Assembly: GCA_018829905.1 (NCBI GenBank)
Contig: JAHJST010000014.1
Span: forward strand, 1 to 48,430
Length of the DNA: 48,430 nucleotides
Direction: 5' to 3'
Origin: Patescibacteria group bacterium
Lineage (GTDB): Bacteria > Patescibacteriota > Minisyncoccia > RBG-13-40-8-A
In this document: piece by piece, positions 4,158-44,758 of the stretch
Layout: each line of letters opens with the position of its first letter
Numbering within the stretch: the stretch's first letter is position 1
The notes under the pieces: generated by a model
What the model was told of the DNA's origin: nothing
Database searches by the model: none
The model's input: the letters and a program-made list of their open reading frames with translations, nothing else
Position numbers and translations under genes: made by a program

Positions 4158-4433
4158 TCATTTGATTTTTTTAAATCCCTCATTAACCAAAGATTCATAG
4201 CCCCAATGATGAACTTGTTCTCCTTCTCCATCCATTGTGAACCAAAGTGTTTTAGTCTTAATTCCACAGGGATTCACTGCCATGCCCACAATAGTGTATT
4301 TTTCACCATTCGGACTCAATACCTTGTCATTGTGCTTAAAGCCAAACTCCATGCACGCTTCGTCTGATATGTCAACCTCGAATTCTCTAAAAAAAGTCTC
4401 CACTTTAACAGTTTTAGATTTTGAATTTGTCAT
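4158..4433 (-). CDS. Hypothetical protein
   Basis: 91-aa ORF with a strong SD (GTAGGAGGTTTAC-ATG), an upstream TTGACA box and its own terminator. Confidence 0.65.
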   Translation of the reverse strand: MTNSKSKTVKVETFFREFEVDISDEACMEFGFKHNDKVLSPNGEKYTIVGMAVNPCGIKTKTLWFTMDGEGEQVHHWGYESLVNEGFKKIK

Positions 4434-4481
4434 GTAAACCTCCTACAAGCACTATGTCATACTGACAGAATCTGTCAAGGA

Positions 4482-8178: not shown

Positions 8179-8206
8179 TTATTTAAATCTAAATGTGGAG
8201 GTTCTT

Positions 8207-8374
8207 ATGTATAAATATGTTTTCTTGATAACCATTATGAGTGGTATTGCTTACTTAACCTATGGAAAAGATTTCCATAGCGGTATATTTCAATTAATAC
8301 TCGTAATTGGTTTCGGTATTGGATTTATTGTTCGTGCCCTAGAAAACATTGTAAGCGCAATAAGAGAAGGATAA
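8207..8374 (+). CDS. Small two-TM membrane protein (55 aa) embedded between rpoB and rpoC on the opposite strand
   Basis: I trimmed the start to the ATG at 8207, which lies 5 nt after a GGAGG SD (8197-8201). The protein has two hydrophobic segments, and the gene has its own promoter and a plus-strand terminator. Confidence 0.55.
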   Translation: MYKYVFLITIMSGIAYLTYGKDFHSGIFQLILVIGFGIGFIVRALENIVSAIREG

Positions 8375-12112: not shown

Positions 12113-12418
12113 TTATTTCTTTTCTAAAAACATTTCTATTCTTTTTTTAAGTTCTTCTTTATTCCAATATGTTTGTAATTGATCTGGGTTTGGTGGTTTA
12201 AGATGTTTTGGAAAAATAAAAAGACAATCTATATTTTGACACGACCAGCCTCTACCGCAATAAAAAGAAACCATACGAAAACCATTACAATTAGGACAAT
12301 CTATCCCATGATCACTGCTACAAGAAAGATTTGTTTCATGAATCTTTTTTTCCCTTTGTATCCATTCTTTTACAACTTTTTTAATTATATCTTCTGAAAC
12401 CTTTTTGTTTCTATTCAT
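12113..12418 (-). CDS. Hypothetical Cys-rich (zinc-ribbon-like) protein
   Basis: 101 aa with CPNCNG...CGRGWSCQNIDC and a strong SD (TAGGAGGTTTTAACAA-ATG). Confidence 0.65.
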   Translation of the reverse strand: MNRNKKVSEDIIKKVVKEWIQREKKIHETNLSCSSDHGIDCPNCNGFRMVSFYCGRGWSCQNIDCLFIFPKHLKPPNPDQLQTYWNKEELKKRIEMFLEKK

Positions 12419-12463
12419 TTGTTAAAACCTCCTAAAAACAATATATCACATCTATAAAAAATA

Positions 12464-16404: not shown

Positions 16405-17244
16405 CGTGTACACACTCCATAATTACTTATGGTACAGACTATAACTTTATTCTTATGATTTCTAAATAAGAATACCGACGTATTATAGAGGGTTATTTAC
16501 CTCTATCCCGCGCTCGATCTAATCGAGCAAACGAAGTCGTTACGGGGTTATACGACAATTTGTATCTCATTGATGGAATTATATACGGATATACAATTCC
16601 ACAAAATCTCTTTGCATCTTTGCTTGGGATATATAATCTATATCCATCTTGAATCCAGTGTAATCTAGAATCAAAAGAAAAATTTTTCTTAAGACATTTT
16701 TTTAATATCTCATTTTCTTCCTTTGTGAATGACAAAGTATTAAGAAATAGACCATAACAGTCATTTCTTCTACCACCATCATCCATAAACCATACTGCTA
16801 AACTTAATGAAGACTTTAATAATGAACAAATATTTTTTGGAATAACTTTCTTGCCTGTTTTTGAATAAAACTGCATGTGTAATTTTTCCAAAAAATCATT
16901 TGTTTTTGTCTTAAATCTCCACTGAGTATAAATCTTATCATATCTTTTATCAAAGATTTTAATACAATGTGGTTTTGAAGAAGTTAATTTTTGCAATTTT
17001 TTATACTTCCAGAATAAATATTTTTTCTGAGATTCTGAATGACCTATCTCTAATCGTACACTATTTTTAGTTTTTCCTAAATAAGCATCTCCTAATAAGG
17101 TGCCTATAATAATTGCATTTTCTTCTGACGAAATCTTGTATTGTCGCAAACTTCCCACGATATTACCCATTCTTTTATTTTAACATAAAAGAATTAGAGC
17201 TTCATCGTTATTAGTCGATTTTACAAGGGCTTGATTCTGTTCTT
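16405..17244 (-). mobile_element. Group I intron in 23S (A-loop region, approx. E. coli 2546) carrying a LAGLIDADG gene
   Basis: The exons join as CCCAAGGGT|TTGGCTGTTCGCC. The 5' exon ends in U. An internal guide GCCCTTG pairs with CAAGGGT. The conserved GTTATAGTC (J8/7-P7') element is present and the intron ends in G. Confidence 0.7.
16493..17170 (-). CDS. LAGLIDADG homing endonuclease (intron-encoded, two-motif)
   Basis: 225 aa with motifs LLGDAYL and WFMDDGG. It lies entirely inside the intron. Confidence 0.9.
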   Translation of the reverse strand: MGNIVGSLRQYKISSEENAIIIGTLLGDAYLGKTKNSVRLEIGHSESQKKYLFWKYKKLQKLTSSKPHCIKIFDKRYDKIYTQWRFKTKTNDFLEKLHMQFYSKTGKKVIPKNICSLLKSSLSLAVWFMDDGGRRNDCYGLFLNTLSFTKEENEILKKCLKKNFSFDSRLHWIQDGYRLYIPSKDAKRFCGIVYPYIIPSMRYKLSYNPVTTSFARLDRARDRGK

Positions 17245-17279
17245 ACCCTTGGGACCTGCTTCAGCCCCAGGATAGGATG

Positions 17280-18133
17280 CATATTACTCATGTATTACTA
17301 CACGTATAGACTATATCATCACCCTATTCTTTAAAAAAGAATGAGGGGTTCAACGTATTATAGTAGTTTAAATCCAGAATATCTGGTACCTACTATCTTG
17401 TCATATAGACTCAGTCGTTACGGGGTTAAAGAAATTTTATATCTCATTTGGGGAACAATATATTGATTAATTATTCCGCAAAATCTTTTAGACTCTCTAC
17501 TTGGAATATAAATATTCCAAAATTTTCCTTTTCTATGCAATTTGCTTTCTATCTTAAAATTATCTTTTAGACATTTTTGCAATAATTTCTGTTCTTTAAG
17601 AGAAAAAGATTCTGTGCTTATTCTAAAAGCATTGCAATCTGTTCTTTTGTGTCCATCGTCCATGAACCAAATTGCCAAGGACAAAGGAGATTTCAAGAAT
17701 TTGTGAATATCTAATGGAATAATTTTTCTATTACTTTTATAAAATTTATTTCTATAAAAGTTAAATAATTCTAAAGAAAAAGTAGAAAAATGCCATCTCT
17801 TATATTCTTTTTTCGTTCTTTTATCAGTTCTTTCAATTATTCTTGGCTTACTTGAAGCTAAATTATTAAATTCTAAATATTTCCACTTCAAATAAGTTTT
17901 CTGTTTTTCCGTATGATCAACCTTTAAACGAACATTTTTTCCATTTTGTTCTAAATGACCATCTCCTAAAATTATTCCTATTAAGATATCCTTTTGTCTA
18001 TTCGATAAATTCATAAATTTCTTTAACTTCCCACGATATTGCCTTATTATATCTGGGTTTCTTTTAATAAGGTTTCATCGTTATTAGTTAAATTTAGACA
18101 TTCTGATTTCTCAGAACGCGGCCAATCCTTTTT
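17280..18133 (-). mobile_element. Group I intron in 23S (PTC, approx. E. coli 2511) carrying a LAGLIDADG gene
   Basis: The exons join as CGATGTCGGCT|CATCCTATCCTGGGGCTG. The guide GGCCG pairs with CGGCT. A GATATAGTC element is present and the intron ends in G. Confidence 0.7.
17418..18014 (-). CDS. LAGLIDADG homing endonuclease (intron-encoded)
   Basis: 198 aa with motifs ILGDGHL and WFMDDGH. Confidence 0.9.
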   Translation of the reverse strand: MNLSNRQKDILIGIILGDGHLEQNGKNVRLKVDHTEKQKTYLKWKYLEFNNLASSKPRIIERTDKRTKKEYKRWHFSTFSLELFNFYRNKFYKSNRKIIPLDIHKFLKSPLSLAIWFMDDGHKRTDCNAFRISTESFSLKEQKLLQKCLKDNFKIESKLHRKGKFWNIYIPSRESKRFCGIINQYIVPQMRYKISLTP

Positions 18134-18144
18134 AGCCGACATCG

Positions 18145-18969
18145 CTTATCGGCATTTTCTCTTCTCACGAAGAGGTTCGGACTATATCTTCATCCTTTAT
18201 GATCTAATAAAGGAGTTGACGTATTATAGAAGCTATATTTTTTAAAACAACTTCTATCTGCTTTTTAAAGCAAGTCTCTACAGGGCTATAACTCAATTTT
18301 ATACTTCATAGATGAAACAATATTATCTTGTATAAGATTTATTAATTTTGGTATTGAATCTTTTAAAAATCTTAAACGATAATAATTTTTATCTTTATTC
18401 ATTCTTACATGCAATCCAATGTTTTTTAATAGAGATACCAAGATTTTTTGTTCTTTAACACTAAATTGTTGAGTATTTAAGTAAAAATCAGATTCTCTAC
18501 ATCTACTTCCATCGTCCATAAACCAAACAGATAAAATTACTGGATCTAATTTAATTTCTTTAGGAATTATTTTCTTACCATTTTTATAAAACAAATTATA
18601 AATTTCTGTCAATTCAGTGCTTTGTTTTGTGTTAAAACGATAAGAAATTCTATTTCCACTATTATTTCTTTTTTTGGGTGGAGAAATTGATATATTTTTT
18701 AATACAGAATATTTCCAATCAACATATTCTTTTTGTTTAAAAGAATGATTGATTTCTAAAAATGCATTCTTCCTTCCAGGAACAATTCTTAAATATCCAT
18801 CACCCAAAACAGATCCAATAATCATAGATCTCTGTAATTGAGTTAAGCTTCCCACGGTATCGACCATATATATTAATTATACTCTATTTTGGCCAGAACA
18901 TATATGGCTTTCACCGTTATAAGTCAAATTTTTTGTATAGCATTACTACTATAGCACCCCAATGTATTA
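18145..18969 (-). mobile_element. Group I intron in 23S (PTC, approx. E. coli 2500) carrying a LAGLIDADG gene
   Basis: The exons join as GTTCGGCACCT|CGATGTCGGCT. The guide GGGGTGC pairs with GCACCT. A GATATAGTC element is followed by the P9-like hairpin CTCTTCGTGAGAAGAG, and the intron ends in G. Confidence 0.72.
18286..18867 (-). CDS. LAGLIDADG homing endonuclease (intron-encoded)
   Basis: 193 aa with motifs VLGDGYL and WFMDDGS. Confidence 0.9.
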   Translation of the reverse strand: MVDTVGSLTQLQRSMIIGSVLGDGYLRIVPGRKNAFLEINHSFKQKEYVDWKYSVLKNISISPPKKRNNSGNRISYRFNTKQSTELTEIYNLFYKNGKKIIPKEIKLDPVILSVWFMDDGSRCRESDFYLNTQQFSVKEQKILVSLLKNIGLHVRMNKDKNYYRLRFLKDSIPKLINLIQDNIVSSMKYKIEL

Positions 18970-22276: not shown

Positions 22277-22942
22277 CTATTTTTCAATATCTTGTCTTAA
22301 TCTTTCTAATATTAGTGTTGCATGATCTTTTCCACCCAAACCAAATGCTAATCCTCCTGCTAAAGCAACCATAGCAATCAATCCAATAACAACTGTTTGA
22401 ATTAATGTAGCTGCAATTCCTAGTTGAGTTAAAGCAATAACAAAACCAAAAACTAATATAGCCCATTTAACTATTCCTGCAACTGCACCAGCAGAAGCTA
22501 ATCCTGCAGTATCTGCAGCAGCTTTAACAAACTTCTTCATAAAATCTCCAACAACCACAGCTACTAAAAGAATTATTGCAGCAACAATTACATTTGGTAG
22601 ATAATAAAGAATTGTTTTTAAGAATAAAGCTACTTCTTGCAAACCAAGAATATCAACAGCTGTCATCAAGAAAACAATTATGAAAAACCACTTAACTAAT
22701 ACTTCAAAGAATTTTCCTGAATCTAACTTAAGTTTTGCTTTTGTTAAAGCTTTTTTAAAACCAAGCTTGTTTAACAAAATATCTAATTTAATTGTTTTAA
22801 CTATTTTATTAGCAACTCTTCCTAGAAAAATAGCAATTAACCAACCGATAATAAAAACAATTAATGCTGCCAAAAGGGTTGGCAAAAATCCTATAAAACT
22901 AAGCCAAACCTCTTGTAATGAGTCTAGTAATATTTCAAGCAT
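22277..22942 (-). CDS. Membrane protein with repeated TM-helix modules (small mechanosensitive-channel-like N-terminal repeat family)
   Basis: 221 aa with about 5 TM helices and Gly/Ala-rich repeats. It is followed by the hairpin cccgtaccatg/catggcacggg at 22236-22264. The functional call is weak. Confidence 0.7.
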   Translation of the reverse strand: MLEILLDSLQEVWLSFIGFLPTLLAALIVFIIGWLIAIFLGRVANKIVKTIKLDILLNKLGFKKALTKAKLKLDSGKFFEVLVKWFFIIVFLMTAVDILGLQEVALFLKTILYYLPNVIVAAIILLVAVVVGDFMKKFVKAAADTAGLASAGAVAGIVKWAILVFGFVIALTQLGIAATLIQTVVIGLIAMVALAGGLAFGLGGKDHATLILERLRQDIEK

Positions 22943-23091
22943 AATATTTAATTTTTAATTATTAATTATATTAATAAATCGACCTATATTAATTATATCA
23001 TAAAATCACGTTGTCAAGAAGATTTTTAATAAAAAAAGAGGAAAAGTTAACCCTTTTACCTCTTTTTGTTGAATTTATTAAAATTTTGGCT

Positions 23092-23547
23092 CTATTTCAT
23101 ATGTTCTTCATCATCATATATACAACTAATCACAAACTTAGTTTTATAGTCTTCATTCATTTTTTCTATAAAATCTTTAATACTTCTAAGTTGAATAATT
23201 CTCATAAAAGGACCAAGAACATCTTTTTGAATATCAATTAATCCACTAAAAAACAATATTTCAAAAAGCCTAAATTCTATATTTACCACTCTTAAAGAAC
23301 TGTTGTCTTTTATTTTCCAACCCCAAATTTCAAATAAATAATGTCTTTTCTTTTGCTTTAATATTAAACTAGACAACTTATCAATATCATTCTTAATGAT
23401 AAGATTTAATGTGTTATCTGCTAAAATAATTCTTTCTTTAATATTCTTAAGCAATTCTTTGGTTTCTAAAAATTCTTCAGCCAATTCCTTTTTTCTATTC
23501 AGCCTGTCTTTGAATCTTTTTGCGAAAGTCGATTTTACTTTTTCCAT
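23092..23547 (-). CDS. Hypothetical protein
   Basis: 151-aa ORF with a strong SD (AAGGAGGGAATA-ATG). Confidence 0.65.
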   Translation of the reverse strand: MEKVKSTFAKRFKDRLNRKKELAEEFLETKELLKNIKERIILADNTLNLIIKNDIDKLSSLILKQKKRHYLFEIWGWKIKDNSSLRVVNIEFRLFEILFFSGLIDIQKDVLGPFMRIIQLRSIKDFIEKMNEDYKTKFVISCIYDDEEHMK

Positions 23548-23761
23548 TATTCCCTCCTTAAATTTTAAATTTGCAGTGGACCCCAGTAGAAGACGTTCAA
23601 ACTTTTTATAAAGAAAATAACTTTAAAAGATGATCTTCAAATAAATTAATTAATCTATAAATTTAAAAAAAGAGTATTTGATTGAAAATATTTTTTCTAT
23701 TACTTGTAATTCTTTAATTGTAATACAATTAACCAAAATCCAAATTGGTTAAGCCATGATT

Positions 23762-23971
23762 CTATTTCTTAATTATTTTATCTACTCCAAATTTATGCCA
23801 CATTATTGCAGCCCCAATAATAAAAATTATTATTATTCCCAATTCTATTGGTTTATCCCAAACATATTTATAAAAACTAGGTCTTGAATAGGCATCTATA
23901 AATAAAACAAGTCCTGTTGCTATAACTAATAAAATTATTTTTAATTTTCTTTCCATTTTTTTCTTTTCCAT
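23762..23971 (-). CDS. Small two-TM membrane protein
   Basis: 69 aa with two hydrophobic helices. Confidence 0.5.
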   Translation of the reverse strand: MEKKKMERKLKIILLVIATGLVLFIDAYSRPSFYKYVWDKPIELGIIIIFIIGAAIMWHKFGVDKIIKK

Positions 23972-24073
23972 AAATTTATGTATTAGTTTTTAGAAAATAA
24001 GCTTACCAAAAAAAACAATTCTATCCTACATACTGCTCGGATGAAACGATTTTAGAGTCTTTATAGTCATAGA

Positions 24074-25054
24074 TTAATCGAAAGACTCTATGTTGCCTAT
24101 AATTTCAAAAATGGAATCATTGATTGGTTCATAAGAAATTTCATAAATGATAAAGATATCTTTATCTGAACTATCTAAATCTTCTTTAATCCTATAATAA
24201 AAAACATTTGTATCCTCTATTTTTAAAGGAATACCAGTTTCTTTTTCTATCCAGATTTTTACATTATCGCCATAAAGACCACCAAATTCTTCATATTTAA
24301 TAATAAATGTACTTTTGCCATTCACGCTTTCGCTTCCTAATAATACTGGATTTTCTTCAAGGGCCCTTATAACGTACTGAAATATGGTACCCTCTAATTT
24401 AGAACCACTATCAATCCTATTCCAATTATCATTTATAGGATCAAAATTTCTATAAAAATAATTATCTCTATAAATTATTTTTTGATTCATTTGAGGTGCT
24501 ATGAAATTAAAGGAATCTGTTCTAGCCATTTTGTCCCCAATCCAGATTTCCATATCCTCTACTTTTTCTTGTTTTTCTTCTCCATCGTAATTAATAGATA
24601 TATTTGTCCTTTCAACCTTACAACGAAAATCTGTTAAATTATTAAGTTTACTCAATGAATCAATTAGAACGCTCTTGGCATCTTTTAGCTCTTCTTTTTC
24701 TTCTTCTTGCTTTTTTGTTTCTTCTTCCGATAAAACAGAATTATTATCTTGATTTTTTTGCACTTCTTTGTTTTCAGATGGCTTAAGCTTTATATAATAA
24801 AATACACCACCACCAATTATAAGAAAAATAATAACCACAAGTGCAATCATTCCAAGCGTTTTTGATTCATTCTTTTTATTTGTATTAATAGTTAGCTCTT
24901 GTATTGATGATTTATTCAAAATTGGTTCTCTACTAAAAGCCTGATTAATATCTTCCTCTTTCCATCCGGCCTTTCTTAATTCTTGTTTTATCTGTTCGTC
25001 ACTAAAACCAGAATTTTTAGACTCTTTAATATAATTTTCTAATTCTTGATTCAT
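24074..25054 (-). CDS. Hypothetical single-pass membrane protein
   Basis: 326 aa. It has an N-terminal soluble helix-rich module (SGFSDEQIKQELRKAGWKEEDINQAF), one TM helix and a beta-rich C-terminal domain. Confidence 0.65.
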   Translation of the reverse strand: MNQELENYIKESKNSGFSDEQIKQELRKAGWKEEDINQAFSREPILNKSSIQELTINTNKKNESKTLGMIALVVIIFLIIGGGVFYYIKLKPSENKEVQKNQDNNSVLSEEETKKQEEEKEELKDAKSVLIDSLSKLNNLTDFRCKVERTNISINYDGEEKQEKVEDMEIWIGDKMARTDSFNFIAPQMNQKIIYRDNYFYRNFDPINDNWNRIDSGSKLEGTIFQYVIRALEENPVLLGSESVNGKSTFIIKYEEFGGLYGDNVKIWIEKETGIPLKIEDTNVFYYRIKEDLDSSDKDIFIIYEISYEPINDSIFEIIGNIESFD

Positions 25055-25315: not shown

Positions 25316-25389
25316 TGGGCGTACTTGGACTCGAACCAAGGACCTCATCTTTATCAGAGATGCGCTCTACCAGGCTGAGCTATACGCCC
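25316..25389 (-). tRNA. tRNA-Ile (GAU)
   Basis: The reverse complement folds as a cloverleaf with anticodon loop CTGATAA and T-loop TTCGAGT. It lies 1 nt from tRNA-Ala. Confidence 0.95.
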
Positions 25390-25450
25390 TAATTCAAAAT
25401 TAACCCCTAAATAAGGTTAATTTTGAATCAAATAAATCTATAAAAAGATC

Positions 25451-25615
25451 TTATGCTTTTCCCATTATTCTGAACATTCCAGTACCACAAGTAGGACAGC
25501 TACCCTTCATAGCTCTTCTCTTGCCACCCTTTCCTTTTATGGTAACTTCCTTTGGATCATTCATCTCAACATCTTTTTTGCGACATTTGACGCAATAACC
25601 TGTTATCTTGTCCAT
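25451..25615 (-). CDS. Small zinc-ribbon protein (54 aa, DUF5679-like) between 16S and tRNA-Ile
   Basis: This ORF is absent from the ORF track because it is shorter than 60 aa. It translates as MDKITGYCVKCRKKDVEMNDPKEVTIKGKGGKRRAMKGSCPTCGTGMFRIMGKA, with paired CxxC motifs. The family assignment is from memory. Confidence 0.6.
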   Translation of the reverse strand: MDKITGYCVKCRKKDVEMNDPKEVTIKGKGGKRRAMKGSCPTCGTGMFRIMGKA

Positions 25616-25887
25616 GTATATCTACGCCTTCATTCAATGGCTAGTTAAATGAAAACGATATATTAATTATTATCAAATTCCATTATATCTTTAAATAAAT
25701 AAAAAAACAAGCAAAAAGTCAAGCCCTTAGCCTGTGGATAAATTGAATTCTGTGTAGTTGCCCTGAAAAAACGATCTTCCTATAAGATACAAAGATCAAC
25801 ATCTCTTAAAATAAGATCAACCTAATTACTTAAAAAAGTAACTAAAAATATTGTTCCATCCACAGCTTCCGCTACGGATGCCTTGTT

Positions 25888-26104
25888 CATGAGGTTCCCT
25901 ATGTCGCCATAAGGCATGGACTATATCTTCACCCTTTATAAAGGGGTCCGGCGTGTAGTCTCTGAGGGGTCAATTACGACTTCCCTGCTGATTGTCTGCA
26001 CTAATACATTGTCACTTAATATAAGTAGTATTAGATACACAGAGTTTCCAGCATACAGCCAGATTTTTCTAAAAAGATTACTCTTTTTAGGTCACAACAA
26101 ATTT
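25888..26104 (-). mobile_element. ORF-less group I intron in 16S (approx. E. coli 1498, 3' of h44)
   Basis: The exons join as GACTAAGTCAT|AACAAGGCATCCGTAGCGGAAG. The guide GTGAC pairs with GTCAT. A GATATAGTC element is present and the intron ends in G. Length is 217 nt. Confidence 0.65.
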
Positions 26105-26191
26105 ATGACTTAGTCCTGGTCACCGAACTCACCTTAGGCCCCATTAAATGGGGACGTCGGGTGCTCCCGGCTTCCCTGACTTGACAGGCGG

Positions 26192-26616
26192 AATTCAATA
26201 GTAGAAAACTTACTTTGAGTTCCCACTTAGCATGCGGATTTCCCGCACTAAGCGAGTTCCTTTTCGAAATTCGAAAAAGATTTTGTCCTTCCTAAGTCTT
26301 TAGAAAAACTTAGTACTATGACGCAGCTGACTTCTCACGGTATCTATTGTTTTCAACAACCATGAGATCTCCTCGGGTTATTTATAGAACGATTCCTTAC
26401 ATCCCAAATTAAGGTTTTGCACTAAAGACCTTCTCCATAACCCACCGCTACATGGATCAATCACCTTTTAATAATTTGGGCTATAATTTGCCTTCAGATC
26501 CTTCAGCTTAAGCCTCGCGGCTTTAAGCCTATCCTTTGGCTACGCTTCTAGTCAAATCATCTAGAAAGGTTGGATTTTAACCAACTAGTTTTATAAACTG
26601 CCGAGCGCATTTATTT
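26192..26616 (-). other. Unclassified 425-nt insertion in the 16S decoding-centre region (approx. E. coli 1398/1399)
   Basis: The exons read ...CTTGTACTCA and CCGCCTGTCAAG..., matching UUGUACACA|CCGCCCGUCA. The insert has no ORF, no GATATAGTC element and no obvious internal guide. It contains long hairpins capped by GCGA (near 26515) and GAAA (near 26240). Boundaries are good to a few nt. Confidence 0.6.
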
Positions 26617-26944
26617 TGAGTACAAGATTTGAGAACGTATTCACCGCGGCGTAGCTGATCCGCGATTACTAACGATTCCAGCTTCATGAGGTCGAATTTC
26701 AGACCTCAATCCGAACTGAGACCAACTTTGATGGGATTGGCTCCACCTTACGGCTTAGCAACCCATTGTATTGGCCATTGTAGCGCCTGTGTTGCCCAGG
26801 GTATCAGAGGGCCATGCTGACTTGGCGTCATCCTTTCCTTCCTCCTCATATAATGAGGCAGTCTTCTGTGACACTTATAACACAGAACAAGGGTTGCGCT
26901 TGTTACCCGACTTAACGGAGCAACTCACGCCACAAGCTGACGAC

Positions 26945-27193
26945 CATATTCATCCATAATTACTTATGGTATGGACTATACCATCCTCCAGACTGGAGGC
27001 CAGCGTTTAATGATGGGTTATAACCACCATTAAGCTTTTCTGCCCAGAAAAGCTTAGTCTCTACGGGGTCTTTTTAAAAAAAGACTTCCCACGATATTGC
27101 CCATTCTTTAATAAAAGAATTTGGGTTTCATCGTTATGAGCTGGTTTTTCAATCCCGATTGCTCGGGAAAGGGCCGTGTATCTAAAAGATACC
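26945..27193 (-). mobile_element. ORF-less group I intron in 16S helix 34 region (approx. E. coli 1060)
   Basis: The exons join as GCTGCATGGCT|GTCGTCAGCTTGTG. The guide GGCC pairs with GGCT. A GGTATAGTC element is present, and the 3' hairpin CCATAAGTAATTATGG is shared with the 23S intron at 16405-17244. Length is 249 nt. Confidence 0.68.
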
Positions 27194-27739
27194 AGCCATG
27201 CAGCACCTGTCCTAATGTCCTTGTAGAAATCTCTTGTTTCCAAGAGGGTTCATTAGGATTTCAAACCCTGGTAAGGTTCTTCGCGTAGTATCGAATTAAA
27301 CCAGACGCTCCACCGTTTGTGCAAATCCCCGTCTATTCCTTTGAGTTTTAGTCTTGCGACCGTACTTCCCAGGCGGGATACTTAACGCGTTAGCTTCGCC
27401 ACTTGAAGGGTCGATACTTCAAACAGCTAGTATCCATCGTTTACAGCGTGGATTACTGGGGTATCTAATCCCATTCACTCCCCACGCTTTCGTCTCTCAG
27501 GGTCAGGAATGCGCCAGCTAAATGCCTTCGCCTTTGGTGTTCCTTAAGGTATCAACGGATTTCACCCCTACTCCTTAAGTTCCATTAGCCTCTCACATCC
27601 TCTAGTTTAGCCGTATCTTTTGCAGACTTGATGTTGAGCATCAAGATTTAACAAAAGACGCACTAAACCCCCTACAGACGCTTTACGCCCAATAATTCCG
27701 GACAACGCTTGGGGCACTCGTATTACCGCTCCTGCTGGC

Positions 27740-28641
27740 CGTTGACAATTTTACAATTGCGTTGGACTATATCACCACCCAGTATTAATATACTGGGGCT
27801 CAGCGTATTATGTCAGTTTATTTTCCTGATTATCAGGTACCTGACATCTTTCTAGTTTAATTCTAGAAAAGTCTCTGAGGGGTTGTCTGTATTGTGGTAA
27901 TTTATACTTAAAACAATTTAAAATATATGGTGAAATAATTTTAATAAACTTATTTCTTCCTTTTGAACCTATATATATTCTAGGATATCTTTTTCCTCTA
28001 ATCAGATTATTGTAGACATTAGATTCAATGCCAAAGTTTTTCATTAATATATCTCTTAATTTTTCAACTTCTTTAACAGAAAAACAATGTGTTGATAAAT
28101 AAAAGCTACAATGATCGTTTGGTCTATAGTCTATACTACCATCATCCATATACCAAATTGCTAAAGACAAAGGAGATACTAATAATTGTTCTATGTTTTT
28201 TGGAATAATTTTTTTCTTATTAGAATAAAACATTTCTCTAAACACATTTAAGTCTTTAATAGACTTGGTTAAGAAATACCATTGCTGATTATCTTTTCTT
28301 TGTTTTGGTTCTGAACGACAAATGTTTTTAAACTTATTATATAGCCAAAAAACATATTCTTTGCTTTCTTGCTTTTGTTTAAAACCAAAAGAAGTAGAGA
28401 CATAAGGTCTGATTAAAAAACCATCACCCAATAAATTCCCAATTAGTATATCAATTTGTCTTTGAGTTAAAATATTTTTGACAAAATCTATCATATATAT
28501 TATTTTATCATAATTTTAACCTACAAACAACTTCCCTGCGGATTGCCACATAAAATGGTTTCCCGCATATAAGCTAAGTTTTTCCATATTGCATTACTGC
28601 AATAGGTCGCGCCACCCTTTACGAGCAAAGGATGTACTTTC
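27740..28641 (-). mobile_element. Group I intron in the 16S 530 loop (E. coli 516 site) carrying a LAGLIDADG gene
   Basis: The exons join as CTAAACTCGT|GCCAGCAGGAGCGGTAATAC. A GATATAGTC element is present and the intron ends in G. Length is 902 nt. Confidence 0.72.
27808..28494 (-). CDS. LAGLIDADG homing endonuclease (intron-encoded)
   Basis: 228 aa with motifs LLGDGFL and WYMDDGS. Confidence 0.9.
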   Translation of the reverse strand: MIDFVKNILTQRQIDILIGNLLGDGFLIRPYVSTSFGFKQKQESKEYVFWLYNKFKNICRSEPKQRKDNQQWYFLTKSIKDLNVFREMFYSNKKKIIPKNIEQLLVSPLSLAIWYMDDGSIDYRPNDHCSFYLSTHCFSVKEVEKLRDILMKNFGIESNVYNNLIRGKRYPRIYIGSKGRNKFIKIISPYILNCFKYKLPQYRQPLRDFSRIKLERCQVPDNQENKLT

Positions 28642-29331
28642 ACGAGTTTAGGAGCCCCTTATTCCTAGGGTGATCTCAAAAATTGTTCCCCTAGAAAAGA
28701 ACTTTACACCCCGAAGGGCTTCTTCATTCACGCGGCGTCGCTCCATCAGACTTTCGTCCATTGTGGAAGATTCTCGACTGCTGCCTCCCGTAGGAGTGAG
28801 GCCCGTATCTCAGTGCCCCTGTTGGGGATCGCGCTCTCACGCCCCCTACCCGTCATAGCCTTGGTAAGCCATTACCTTACCAACAAGCTGATAGGCCGCA
28901 GGCCACTCTCTAACCAATAAATCTTTACCCAAAAGGGATTATCGGGAATTATTCCGGATTTCTCCGGGTTATGCCCGAGTTAGAGGTATGTACCTACGTG
29001 TTACTAACCCGTCTGCCATGGGCCTAAACCCATTCGACTTGCATGCCTTATCCACGCCGCCAGCGTTCGTCCTGAGCCAGGATCAAACTCTCAATATAAG
29101 AATCATCACAAAATTCAGCACAAATAAGTAAACTTATACGTGCCTTATTTGTAATGATCAATAGATCAGGACAACTACACAAAATTCAATAGTTGTCTAT
29201 TCAGTTATTAAAGAACAACTTAAAACAGAGTTTAAACTTTTTTAAACAAAAAAACCTAAACTCTGTTTTAAACGTACTGGTAAATTGTGAGTTAATTTCA
29301 CATAAAATTAATATTAATACTTGTATTATCA

Positions 29332-31840: not shown

Positions 31841-32224
31841 TTAGTTATTATTAGTTATGGATTTTATCAATTCTTCTTTGTCTGTCTTTTCTGCTTTTTC
31901 AATTGCTGCATTTATTTCTTCTTTTATTTTTCTCATTAATTTTCTTGGAATAAAAAAGCTTGTTGAATTAATACGTATTTCTTTATTATTACCATAAGGA
32001 TTAATAATAATTTTCGTATTATGCATTTTAAAACCACATGCCCAGCTTGAAAGTACAAATTTTCTAAAATCATCTTTATAGCTTCTTATAAACTCAATAA
32101 TTTCTTCGACAATCAAAATTATTTCTCTCTTTTCTTTTTCTTTTTTCTTAATTCTTTCTCCTTTTTTCTTTTTGTTTCCAAGATGCCAACTAACAATATT
32201 GTTAATAATTTTTTCTAAACCCAT
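31841..32224 (-). CDS. Hypothetical protein
   Basis: I trimmed the start to the ATG at 32224, which follows an AAAGGAGG SD. A TTGACT-16-TATAAT promoter lies upstream, with its -10 near 32243. Confidence 0.65.
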   Translation of the reverse strand: MGLEKIINNIVSWHLGNKKKKGERIKKKEKEKREIILIVEEIIEFIRSYKDDFRKFVLSSWACGFKMHNTKIIINPYGNNKEIRINSTSFFIPRKLMRKIKEEINAAIEKAEKTDKEELIKSITNNN

Positions 32225-32321
32225 AATTACCTCCTTTGTTGTATTATACACAAATACATAAAAAAGTCAACCCCAAAATACAAAAAACCGCATATACTAA
32301 TATATACAATTTTCTAAAATC

Positions 32322-33881: not shown

Positions 33882-34024
33882 TTGCATTAAGATTTAAATG
33901 AGATATAATTAATATATAGGTCCTCCCGGCTTGCTCTTTTGTTCTCTCCCTTTTTAAGGCACAGGCAAGGCACCTTGTCGGCACGACCTAAACAAAAATC
34001 CTCGATTTTACTCGAGGTTTTTTG
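33882..34024 (+). ncRNA. Candidate small RNA (about 108 nt) with its own promoter and terminator
   Basis: TTGCAT (33882-33887), a 16-nt spacer, then TATAAT (33904-33909). The predicted TSS is near 33916. The body is AGGTCCTCCCGGC...GTCGGCACGACCT, whose ends pair with G-U pairs that only work on the plus strand. The terminator is cctcga/tcgagg (34000-34017) plus a T-run. Local GC is above background. Confidence 0.5.
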
Positions 34025-34050
34025 TTACAAGGATTTTATTTAACAAATGC

Positions 34051-44019: not shown

Positions 44020-44047
44020 GATAAAAAGTTTTTAAAAGGAGAAAACG

Positions 44048-44758
44048 ATGTATGAACGAATGAATATGCCAGTTCGTAAGCCAATGCCCTATCTTTGTAT
44101 GGGACTTTCCAGACTTTTTGGCGGTATTGCTTTTCTCGTTGTTAGTTTTGGAATGTTTAATAAGCTTAATGATAAATGGGATCTCGGTATTAAGCATATG
44201 ATGGACATTTCATCTACGGGCGGAAAAGCATATGGTGCTCTTGTTCTTTCAATGTTTGTTGGATTAATTGCTCTGGTGATTGGACAAATAATCGGCGCAA
44301 GCATACGAGTAAAAAACGAAGATTTAGCTTGCCACATTACTATCACTTGGCACTATGTAGCCATTACTTCACTTATCTGGCTTTTCATGGCTCCAATTCC
44401 CATAGCGATAACCCTGGGAAAGGTTCAATCAAAAATATTTTTTGAATCCTTTGGAGATGCTTTTTTCATTATGGCCTTTATTGTTGCAGCAGTCGGCGGC
44501 ATGTTGATTTCCCTAGCTATGACTATTTCAGGCAAAGTCGGGCTCAAAATAGATCGAGGTTTAGGCAATCTACTTTCTAGAATGCTACCAATTACTATTG
44601 GTATTGCAATGGGTATCTTTCAACTTTCAAGTATTGGTTTTCCCATTATTGGTGGTGTGATTATAGGTTTCATGCTTCCATATCTTCTTATCCCAATAGC
44701 TTCTATTATGTGGCGAAGAGATATGGCCAGACGAAATCCAGCCTACATTCATCTTTAA
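44048..44758 (+). CDS. Polytopic membrane protein of unknown function
   Basis: 236 aa with 6-7 hydrophobic helices. It has an AAGGAG SD and a downstream terminator. Confidence 0.75.
   Translation: MYERMNMPVRKPMPYLCMGLSRLFGGIAFLVVSFGMFNKLNDKWDLGIKHMMDISSTGGKAYGALVLSMFVGLIALVIGQIIGASIRVKNEDLACHITITWHYVAITSLIWLFMAPIPIAITLGKVQSKIFFESFGDAFFIMAFIVAAVGGMLISLAMTISGKVGLKIDRGLGNLLSRMLPITIGIAMGIFQLSSIGFPIIGGVIIGFMLPYLLIPIASIMWRRDMARRNPAYIHL

Follow-up and report, generated by a model that had tools for sequence, protein, structure and literature searches.

Strong Shine-Dalgarno motifs in a groundwater Paceibacteria genome with a 16S rRNA tail that lacks the anti-Shine-Dalgarno sequence

The split 16S rRNA gene and its 3′ tail

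The stretch of DNA analysed here (the window, 48,430 nt) belongs to a 641 kb draft genome of 27 contigs (G000; 28% GC, 96% complete). The host is a groundwater member of the Paceibacteria (Parcubacteria, CPR), a placement which is indirect and which fits the 641 kb genome size, the presence of rRNA introns and the failure to find ribosomal protein uL1. The window contains a 16S rRNA gene interrupted by four insertions, for which the exons were mapped by blastn against the intron-free 16S gene of a genome of the same family (G004). The features at this locus are:

25842-29098, minus strand: 16S rRNA gene with four insertions (Rfam SSU_rRNA_bacteria, 1067 bits, and blastn exon map)
about 29098-28641, 27739-27193, 26944-26617, 26191-26105 and 25887-25842, minus strand: 16S exons (blastn, with aligned segments 29096-28641, 27739-27193, 26944-26617, 26191-26103 and 25892-25840)
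29166-29189, minus strand: 5′ arm of the pre-16S processing stem, in the leader, pairing with 25766-25743
26192-26616, minus strand: insertion of 425 nt at the helix 44 base (exon map; matches group II D1-D4 models weakly)
25888-26104, minus strand: group I intron (Rfam Intron_gpI RF00028, 87.9 bits over the full model; exon map)
25858-25879, minus strand: helix 45, an 8-bp stem including two G-U pairs with a CGGAAG loop, read directly and aligning with helix 45 of 16 relatives
25842-25857, minus strand: 16S 3′ tail GGAACAAUAUUUUUAG without anti-Shine-Dalgarno (anti-SD) sequence, standing where GGAUCACCUCCUUUCUAG is expected
25743-25766, minus strand: 3′ arm of the pre-16S processing stem, matching 29189-29166 with full complementarity over 24 nt

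The group I intron is located at the equivalent of E. coli position 1506, where U is the last base of the 5′ exon and G that of the intron; the exact splice sites were placed by this U/G rule, and the resulting exon junction GTCAT/AACAAGG (in full GTCAT/...CATG/AACAAGG) restores the conserved universal linker. A metatranscriptome contig (X10 record 1) joins 26191 to 26617 with zero mismatches, the 425-nt insertion being absent from that RNA. The same 26191/26617 joint, with short sides, was also detected in DNA runs, where it probably derives from relatives that do not have the 425-nt insertion. LAGLIDADG_2 homing endonucleases are encoded by four ORFs within rRNA insertions, of which three belong to the 23S and one to the 16S rRNA gene (16493-18867 and 27808-28494, minus strand). 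A 54-aa zinc-ribbon ORF (DUF5679, E = 2e-9; 25451-25615, minus strand) is found between the 16S trailer and tRNA-Ile, and protein genes at 22277-25054 (minus strand) separate tRNA-Ala from the 23S rRNA gene, which gives a 16S-23S distance of about 3.2 kb. These proteins include an MscS-type TM-helix protein, and the product of a gene that carries a Shine-Dalgarno (SD) motif and has neither a Pfam family nor a real homologue in 40 relatives.

A first-pass annotation of this DNA had described a last exon with an intact helix 45 after the last intron, and this exon (about 25887-25842) was indeed recovered behind the group I intron. Helix 45 reads ATCCGTAG-CGGAAG-CTGTGGAT (25879-25858, minus strand), directly followed by the tail GGAACAATATTTTTAG (25857-25842, minus strand), of which the 14 nt at 25857-25844 are exactly as previously written. 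Most bacteria have GGATCACCTCCTTTCTAG at this position. The tail has retained its length and is now A/U-rich in composition, and its predicted duplex with AAAGGAGGUAAUU reaches -2.3 kcal/mol, versus -13.1 kcal/mol for the canonical tail. The annotation had also reported a processing stem, with its 3′ arm at 25742-25766, and no CCTCC between helix 45 and that arm. Both observations hold: 25766-25743 pairs with 29189-29166 in the leader with no mismatch, and the lack of CCTCC extends from 25857 to tRNA-Ile at 25389. There is likewise no CCUCC in the spliced 16S rRNA, and the sole CCTCC of the whole pre-rRNA is located at 26999, inside the second insertion and outside the exons. The earlier suggestion that the tail might differ after processing is not supported, as trimming cannot expose a CCUCC that the precursor does not contain anywhere from helix 45 to the processing stem and on to tRNA-Ile.

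Alternatively, an anti-SD could be present but missed, either in a second rrs gene or detached 3′ fragment within the unassembled 4% of the genome, or because the tail was mis-assembled. Some room for this is left by the draft state of the genome, with 27 contigs, and by the frequently poor assembly of rRNA genes, but only one SSU match was found in the 96% complete genome, and the tail is contiguous with the spacer in two independent assemblies. These are contigs of DNA runs X2 and X3, from two other groundwater metagenomes belonging to different studies from the one that probably yielded this genome, which span 25400-25884 and reproduce the tail, with two SNPs relative to the window that are both outside it. 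A second rrs copy supplying the anti-SD, as proposed in the first-pass annotation, is further contradicted by a relative of the same family with a complete one-contig genome (G005), which has a single SSU match with the same tail. Orphan 16S 3′ fragments were rejected as well, since every TCACCTCC or CACCTCCT word of the genome is the reverse complement of an SD, part of a coding sequence or part of a tRNA, with none in an rRNA context. An overlooked anti-SD is thus extremely improbable, and we confirmed that the anti-SD is truly missing, and is not lost through a slip of assembly or annotation. DNA contigs from X2 and X3 with loose ends reading TCACCTCCTTTCTA at 25855 were assigned to co-occurring relatives that keep the anti-SD, and not to this organism. 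The bin containing the last exon is covered by RNA contigs, with none located further on; contigs cannot show ends, so these are no evidence of the 3′ end.

Comparison with close relatives, which the first-pass annotation had put forward as a check, gave the same result throughout the family. Each of the seven genomes of the family in which the 3′ end could be read, G005 among them, has the A/U-rich tail, in the form GGA[AC]AAUAUUUUUAC, and its carriers form a clade with 100% support on the 16S tree. [quoted passage not shown] Elsewhere in the class, GGATCACCTCCTTTCT is kept in five genomes, and five other 16S copies have different degenerate tails (in G038, G018, G039 and G023, and in one of the two copies in the G010 bin). 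This G010 copy groups on the tree with G018, from another family, which suggests bin contamination (4% reported; L015, G010:C52). The best 16S tree contains four changes of anti-SD state, of which well-supported branches force only one, and this would be compatible with a single loss in the class without deciding for it. Ribosomal protein uL1 (PF00687) was not found in the 96% complete G000, which places it in the uL1-lacking group; among 41 genomes of the class it was found in only two and not found in 39 (controls 14/14). A search for bS21 (PF01165) in G000 was also negative.

Shine-Dalgarno motifs and translation initiation

The relation of SD motifs to gene starts was investigated using a crude set of gene calls, consisting of 609 longest ORFs with the first ATG as start, for which no SD information was used. 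Genome-wide, GGAGG and AGGAG start positions peak at -11 to -9, and AGGAGG is the most enriched hexamer at -18 to -4, with 22 occurrences observed versus 1.5 expected. A strong motif is present at -11 to -9 before 39 of the 609 genes (6.4%), compared to 11 in a control window. The comparison of GGAGG frequency with background envisaged in the first-pass annotation thus gave a sharp enrichment at canonical spacing. The motifs often extend to AAGGAGGT, which would form a duplex of -13.1 kcal/mol with a canonical tail and of -2.3 kcal/mol with the tail found here. The motifs in the window are:

4439-4444, minus strand: AGGAGG, spaced 5 nt from the ATG of a 91-aa gene (4158-4433) with no Pfam family and a GC3 of 0.36
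8197-8201, plus strand: GGAGG, 5 nt before a 55-aa ORF (8207-8374) in the rpoB-rpoC spacer
12428-12433, minus strand: AGGAGG, spaced 9 nt from the ATG of a 101-aa gene (12113-12418) with no Pfam family and a patchy distribution
23553-23558, minus strand: AGGAGG, spaced 5 nt from the ATG of a 151-aa gene (23092-23547) with no Pfam family, inside the split rRNA locus
32230-32235, minus strand: AGGAGG, spaced 5 nt from the ATG of a 127-aa gene (31841-32224) with no Pfam family
44034-44758, plus strand: AAGGAG followed by a 236-aa gene (44048-44758), among the very few long plus-strand ORFs in the window

Four of five SD examples given in the first-pass annotation are placed correctly (AGGAGG exactly at 4439-4444, 12428-12433 and 32230-32235, and GGAGG at 8197-8201 on the plus strand), and the fifth, given as 23551-23556, is really at 23553-23558, 2 nt away. 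The lack of an SD upstream of rpoC was as described there. None of the five SD genes in the window has a Pfam family. Neither the 23092-23547 gene (no real homologue) nor the 31841-32224 gene (no homologue) has a counterpart in the 40 relatives searched, and the best homologue of the 12113-12418 gene is in G026, from another family, where it is also preceded by AGGAGG. The 44048-44758 gene has a GC content of 38.5% versus 28% for the genome, and only three relatives among 5.8 billion proteins. The ORF at 8207-8374 (plus strand) is hydrophobic and is on the strand opposite to rpoB and rpoC.

There is no G peak before the start codons of G000, with A reaching 56-57% at -6 to -4 and T 59% at -1, and the regions upstream of core genes are A-rich and G-poor. 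Duplexes with a canonical anti-SD have an equal mean energy for -22 to -3 and for a control region, and by this measure and their low rate of SD motifs the native genes do not use SDs. A replacement SD of A/U-rich sequence was considered and rejected, as RNAduplex pairing of the new tail with -22 to -3 is weaker than with the control (-2.39 versus -2.80 kcal/mol); scrambled tails behave alike. Initiation in this organism is most probably SD-independent. TATAAT-like hexamers have start positions peaking at -14 to -12 from the ATG in G000 (24, 21 and 42 genes, versus a background of about 8), and this -10 peak, with the box at -12 to -7, is likewise present in G005 and in G025, a relative that kept the anti-SD, and so occurs with the anti-SD present or not. 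With the -10 box ending 6 nt upstream of the ATG, transcription would start at about the start codon, which suggests that many first genes are leaderless and that this is widespread in the class. G000 also has a bS1-like protein with four S1 domains.

These observations can be combined into a probable course of events for the ribosome. The 16S rRNA has lost its CCUCC, the tail having kept its length and become A/U-rich across the family, and initiation would proceed without SD pairing, with a sizeable share of genes starting 6 nt past a TATAAT-like -10 box. The four-domain bS1-like protein may serve the A/U-rich leaders. The AGGAGG motifs at canonical spacing on about 6% of genes would then not be read by this ribosome.

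Composition and distribution of the SD genes

The SD genes differ from the other genes in both composition and distribution. Next to the genes listed above, they include about twenty hypotheticals, three radical SAM enzymes, glycan enzymes, a permease, a pilin-like protein, a MurD-like ligase and YidC. Their median GC3 is 0.221 versus 0.135 for the others (p = 6e-12), and the top GC3 quintile accounts for 25 of the 39, the bottom two quintiles together for two. The link with GC3 is not a side effect of local G+C content, because the control window showed no such trend. A homologue in G005, a genome of the same family, was found for 7 of the 39 SD genes versus 407 of the 570 others (Fisher p = 4e-11), leaving 82% and 29%, respectively, without a homologue in that genome; length-matched sampling gave 0/2000. 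None of the seven shared SD genes has the motif in its G005 counterpart. Among shared genes of native composition the motif is present in 1.3%, equal to background, and among unshared genes in the top GC3 quintile it reaches 29% (24/84).

The apparent SD of yidC is made up of Gly-Gly codons at the end of yidD (..KGGYDP; G000 C15:16141-16929, L065-L069) that are replaced by synonymous codons in five relatives, and is an example of a look-alike created by coding sequence. Two SD genes were searched against 5.8 billion proteins and were near-ORFans, and no donor was identified in the searches with these two genes. Prophage origin of the SD genes was rejected, since PHROGs matches were limited to radical SAM enzymes, glycosyltransferases and similar proteins, with no phage hallmark or structural genes among the SD genes.

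Two whole relatives were tiled for the same comparison of SD motifs, GC3 and homologues, being G005 (no anti-SD, 36% GC) and G025 (anti-SD kept). G005 repeats every point of the G000 pattern: the motif is present on 4.9% of genes, with a GC3 of 0.443 for SD genes and 0.306 for others, the top GC3 quintile accounts for 22 of its 30 SD genes, and a homologue in G000 was found for 8 of the 30 versus 399 of the 580 other genes. In G025, 7.9% of genes have an SD, and these are again mostly accessory, with 48/56 lacking a homologue in G000; their GC3 is native (0.433 versus 0.456). Core genes of this class do not use SDs, whether the anti-SD is present or absent, which would relax selection on the tail.

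The most probable explanation is that the SD motifs are passengers on recently acquired foreign genes, in a cell where the ribosome has no anti-SD and starts translation SD-independently. This is the best supported of the explanations, and it was absent from those listed in the first-pass annotation. Judged by composition and patchy distribution, a horizontal origin of the SD genes is most likely, and we infer that the motifs are functionless in this organism. They may have arrived together with accessory genes from SD-using donors, and would decay after the acquired genes settle in. Passenger motifs lead to the expectation that SD-led accessory genes persist where the anti-SD survives, and that elsewhere only recent, foreign-looking genes carry the motif. 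AGGAGG-N4-9-ATG counts per genome are of the same order across the 41 genomes, with the rate in anti-SD-less genomes about as high as in most anti-SD-bearing relatives. This similarity is not fully explained by passenger motifs, as one might expect a purely decaying relic to be rarer.

The SD genes could instead be native, fast-evolving accessory genes, with their SDs being relics of an SD-using ancestor rather than imports. The core/accessory difference in SD use is also present in the anti-SD-bearing G025, so that in the ancestor SD use may have persisted longest in accessory genes. The age of the family-wide loss argues against such relics, and by our reasoning a functionless G-rich hexamer should not survive genus-level divergence at 28% GC. 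Furthermore, the SD genes are GC3 outliers and have not been ameliorated, and among accessory genes the motif is far rarer at native GC3 than in the top GC3 quintile (8/111 versus 24/84). We therefore regard an ancestral origin of the motifs as unlikely.

The first-pass annotation also raised the possibility that the motifs act by another route. One form of this would have them function through a protein or a C-rich RNA, for instance the candidate at 33918-34026, and control a set of accessory genes, which fits the sharpness of the positional SD peak and the similar motif frequency in anti-SD-less and anti-SD-bearing genomes. A promoter-to-terminator unit is located at 33882-34026 on the plus strand, predicted to produce a G+C-rich RNA of about 100 nt (33918-34026) with CCUCCC and CUCUCCC motifs and no Rfam family, and the existence of such a unit with C-rich motifs that folds well (z = -4.25) also speaks for another reader. 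Against this, the motif is kept in none of the seven shared genes, nor in the yidC orthologues, and native genes have it at background rate. The CCUCCC of the small RNA falls in a predicted stem region, and its body has no detectable counterpart in 40 relatives, where the terminator alone gives matches; it was hence rejected as SD partner and remains a candidate only. Control of accessory genes by another reader is accordingly very unlikely. The wider claim that AGGAGG serves as a functional signal on accessory genes of anti-SD-less Paceibacteria, with a C-rich small RNA or a protein as its reader, is very doubtful indeed. The route proposed in the first-pass annotation is not supported, given that orthologues do not keep the motifs, that shared native genes are at background rate, and that the motifs are concentrated on compositionally foreign, patchily distributed genes. 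If such a reader did exist, it would give the cell a separate handle on foreign and accessory genes.

Relation to other lineages without SD-led initiation

Loss of the anti-SD is in itself already known for Parcubacteria, and the window adds a well-documented case. Tsurumaki, Saito, Tomita and Kanai (2022, RNA 28:1041; PMC9297842) reported that about half of Parcubacteria lack the anti-SD motif (detection rate 48%), in a group overlapping with that lacking uL1. With its intact bacterial 16S rRNA and a tail without CCUCC(U), G000 is one of the anti-SD-less Parcubacteria, and it resembles that group in being a CPR/Parcubacteria member with a small genome, no CCUCCU at the 16S 3′ end, no uL1 and rRNA insertions. 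Residual SD motifs, their restriction to foreign-like genes and the leaderless signature, in contrast, are not described there.

Decay of the anti-SD by C-to-U/A changes, with no residual SD signal, has been described in reduced genomes (Lim, Furuta, Kobayashi 2012, MBE 29:2937, PMC3457768; Nikolaeva 2021, PMC7782861). Insect endosymbionts, haemotropic mycoplasmas and some Flavobacteria share with G000 the decay of CCUCC, a small A+T-rich genome, the lack of a general G-rich signal and the loss of ribosomal proteins, but have no SD signal, unlike the sharp residual peak on about 6% of genes detected here. Such a residual peak fits a lineage that is still taking up foreign genes. In Bacteroidia with SD-blind ribosomes, the anti-SD is sequestered by bS21, bS18 and bS6, and the SD of rpsU is a conserved autoregulatory site (PMC9976891, PMC13000453). 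Core genes there also start without an SD and rely on upstream adenines, with strong SDs on few genes; however, the anti-SD is retained in Bacteroidia and is gone in G000, where bS21 was not found and the SDs are not conserved, so that the mechanism of the Bacteroidia type does not apply here. Finally, the -10 box at a fixed short distance from the start codon of many genes is a likeness to the genome classes with leaderless mRNAs distinguished by GeneMarkS-2 (PMC6028130), the difference being that the signature here, read from sequence alone, occurs alongside complete loss of the anti-SD.

What is new here is modest: both anti-SD-less genomes have their strong SDs on genes that are foreign in composition and specific to the lineage, and not on native genes, in contrast to the anti-SD-bearing relative, in which the SD genes are compositionally native. 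If this is true of many genomes, recent gene imports into a lineage without anti-SD could be recognised cheaply by their strong SDs, and it would mean that gene exchange between these episymbionts and SD-using neighbours is continuing. In anti-SD-less genomes, start codons will be misplaced by gene finders that rely on SD motifs.
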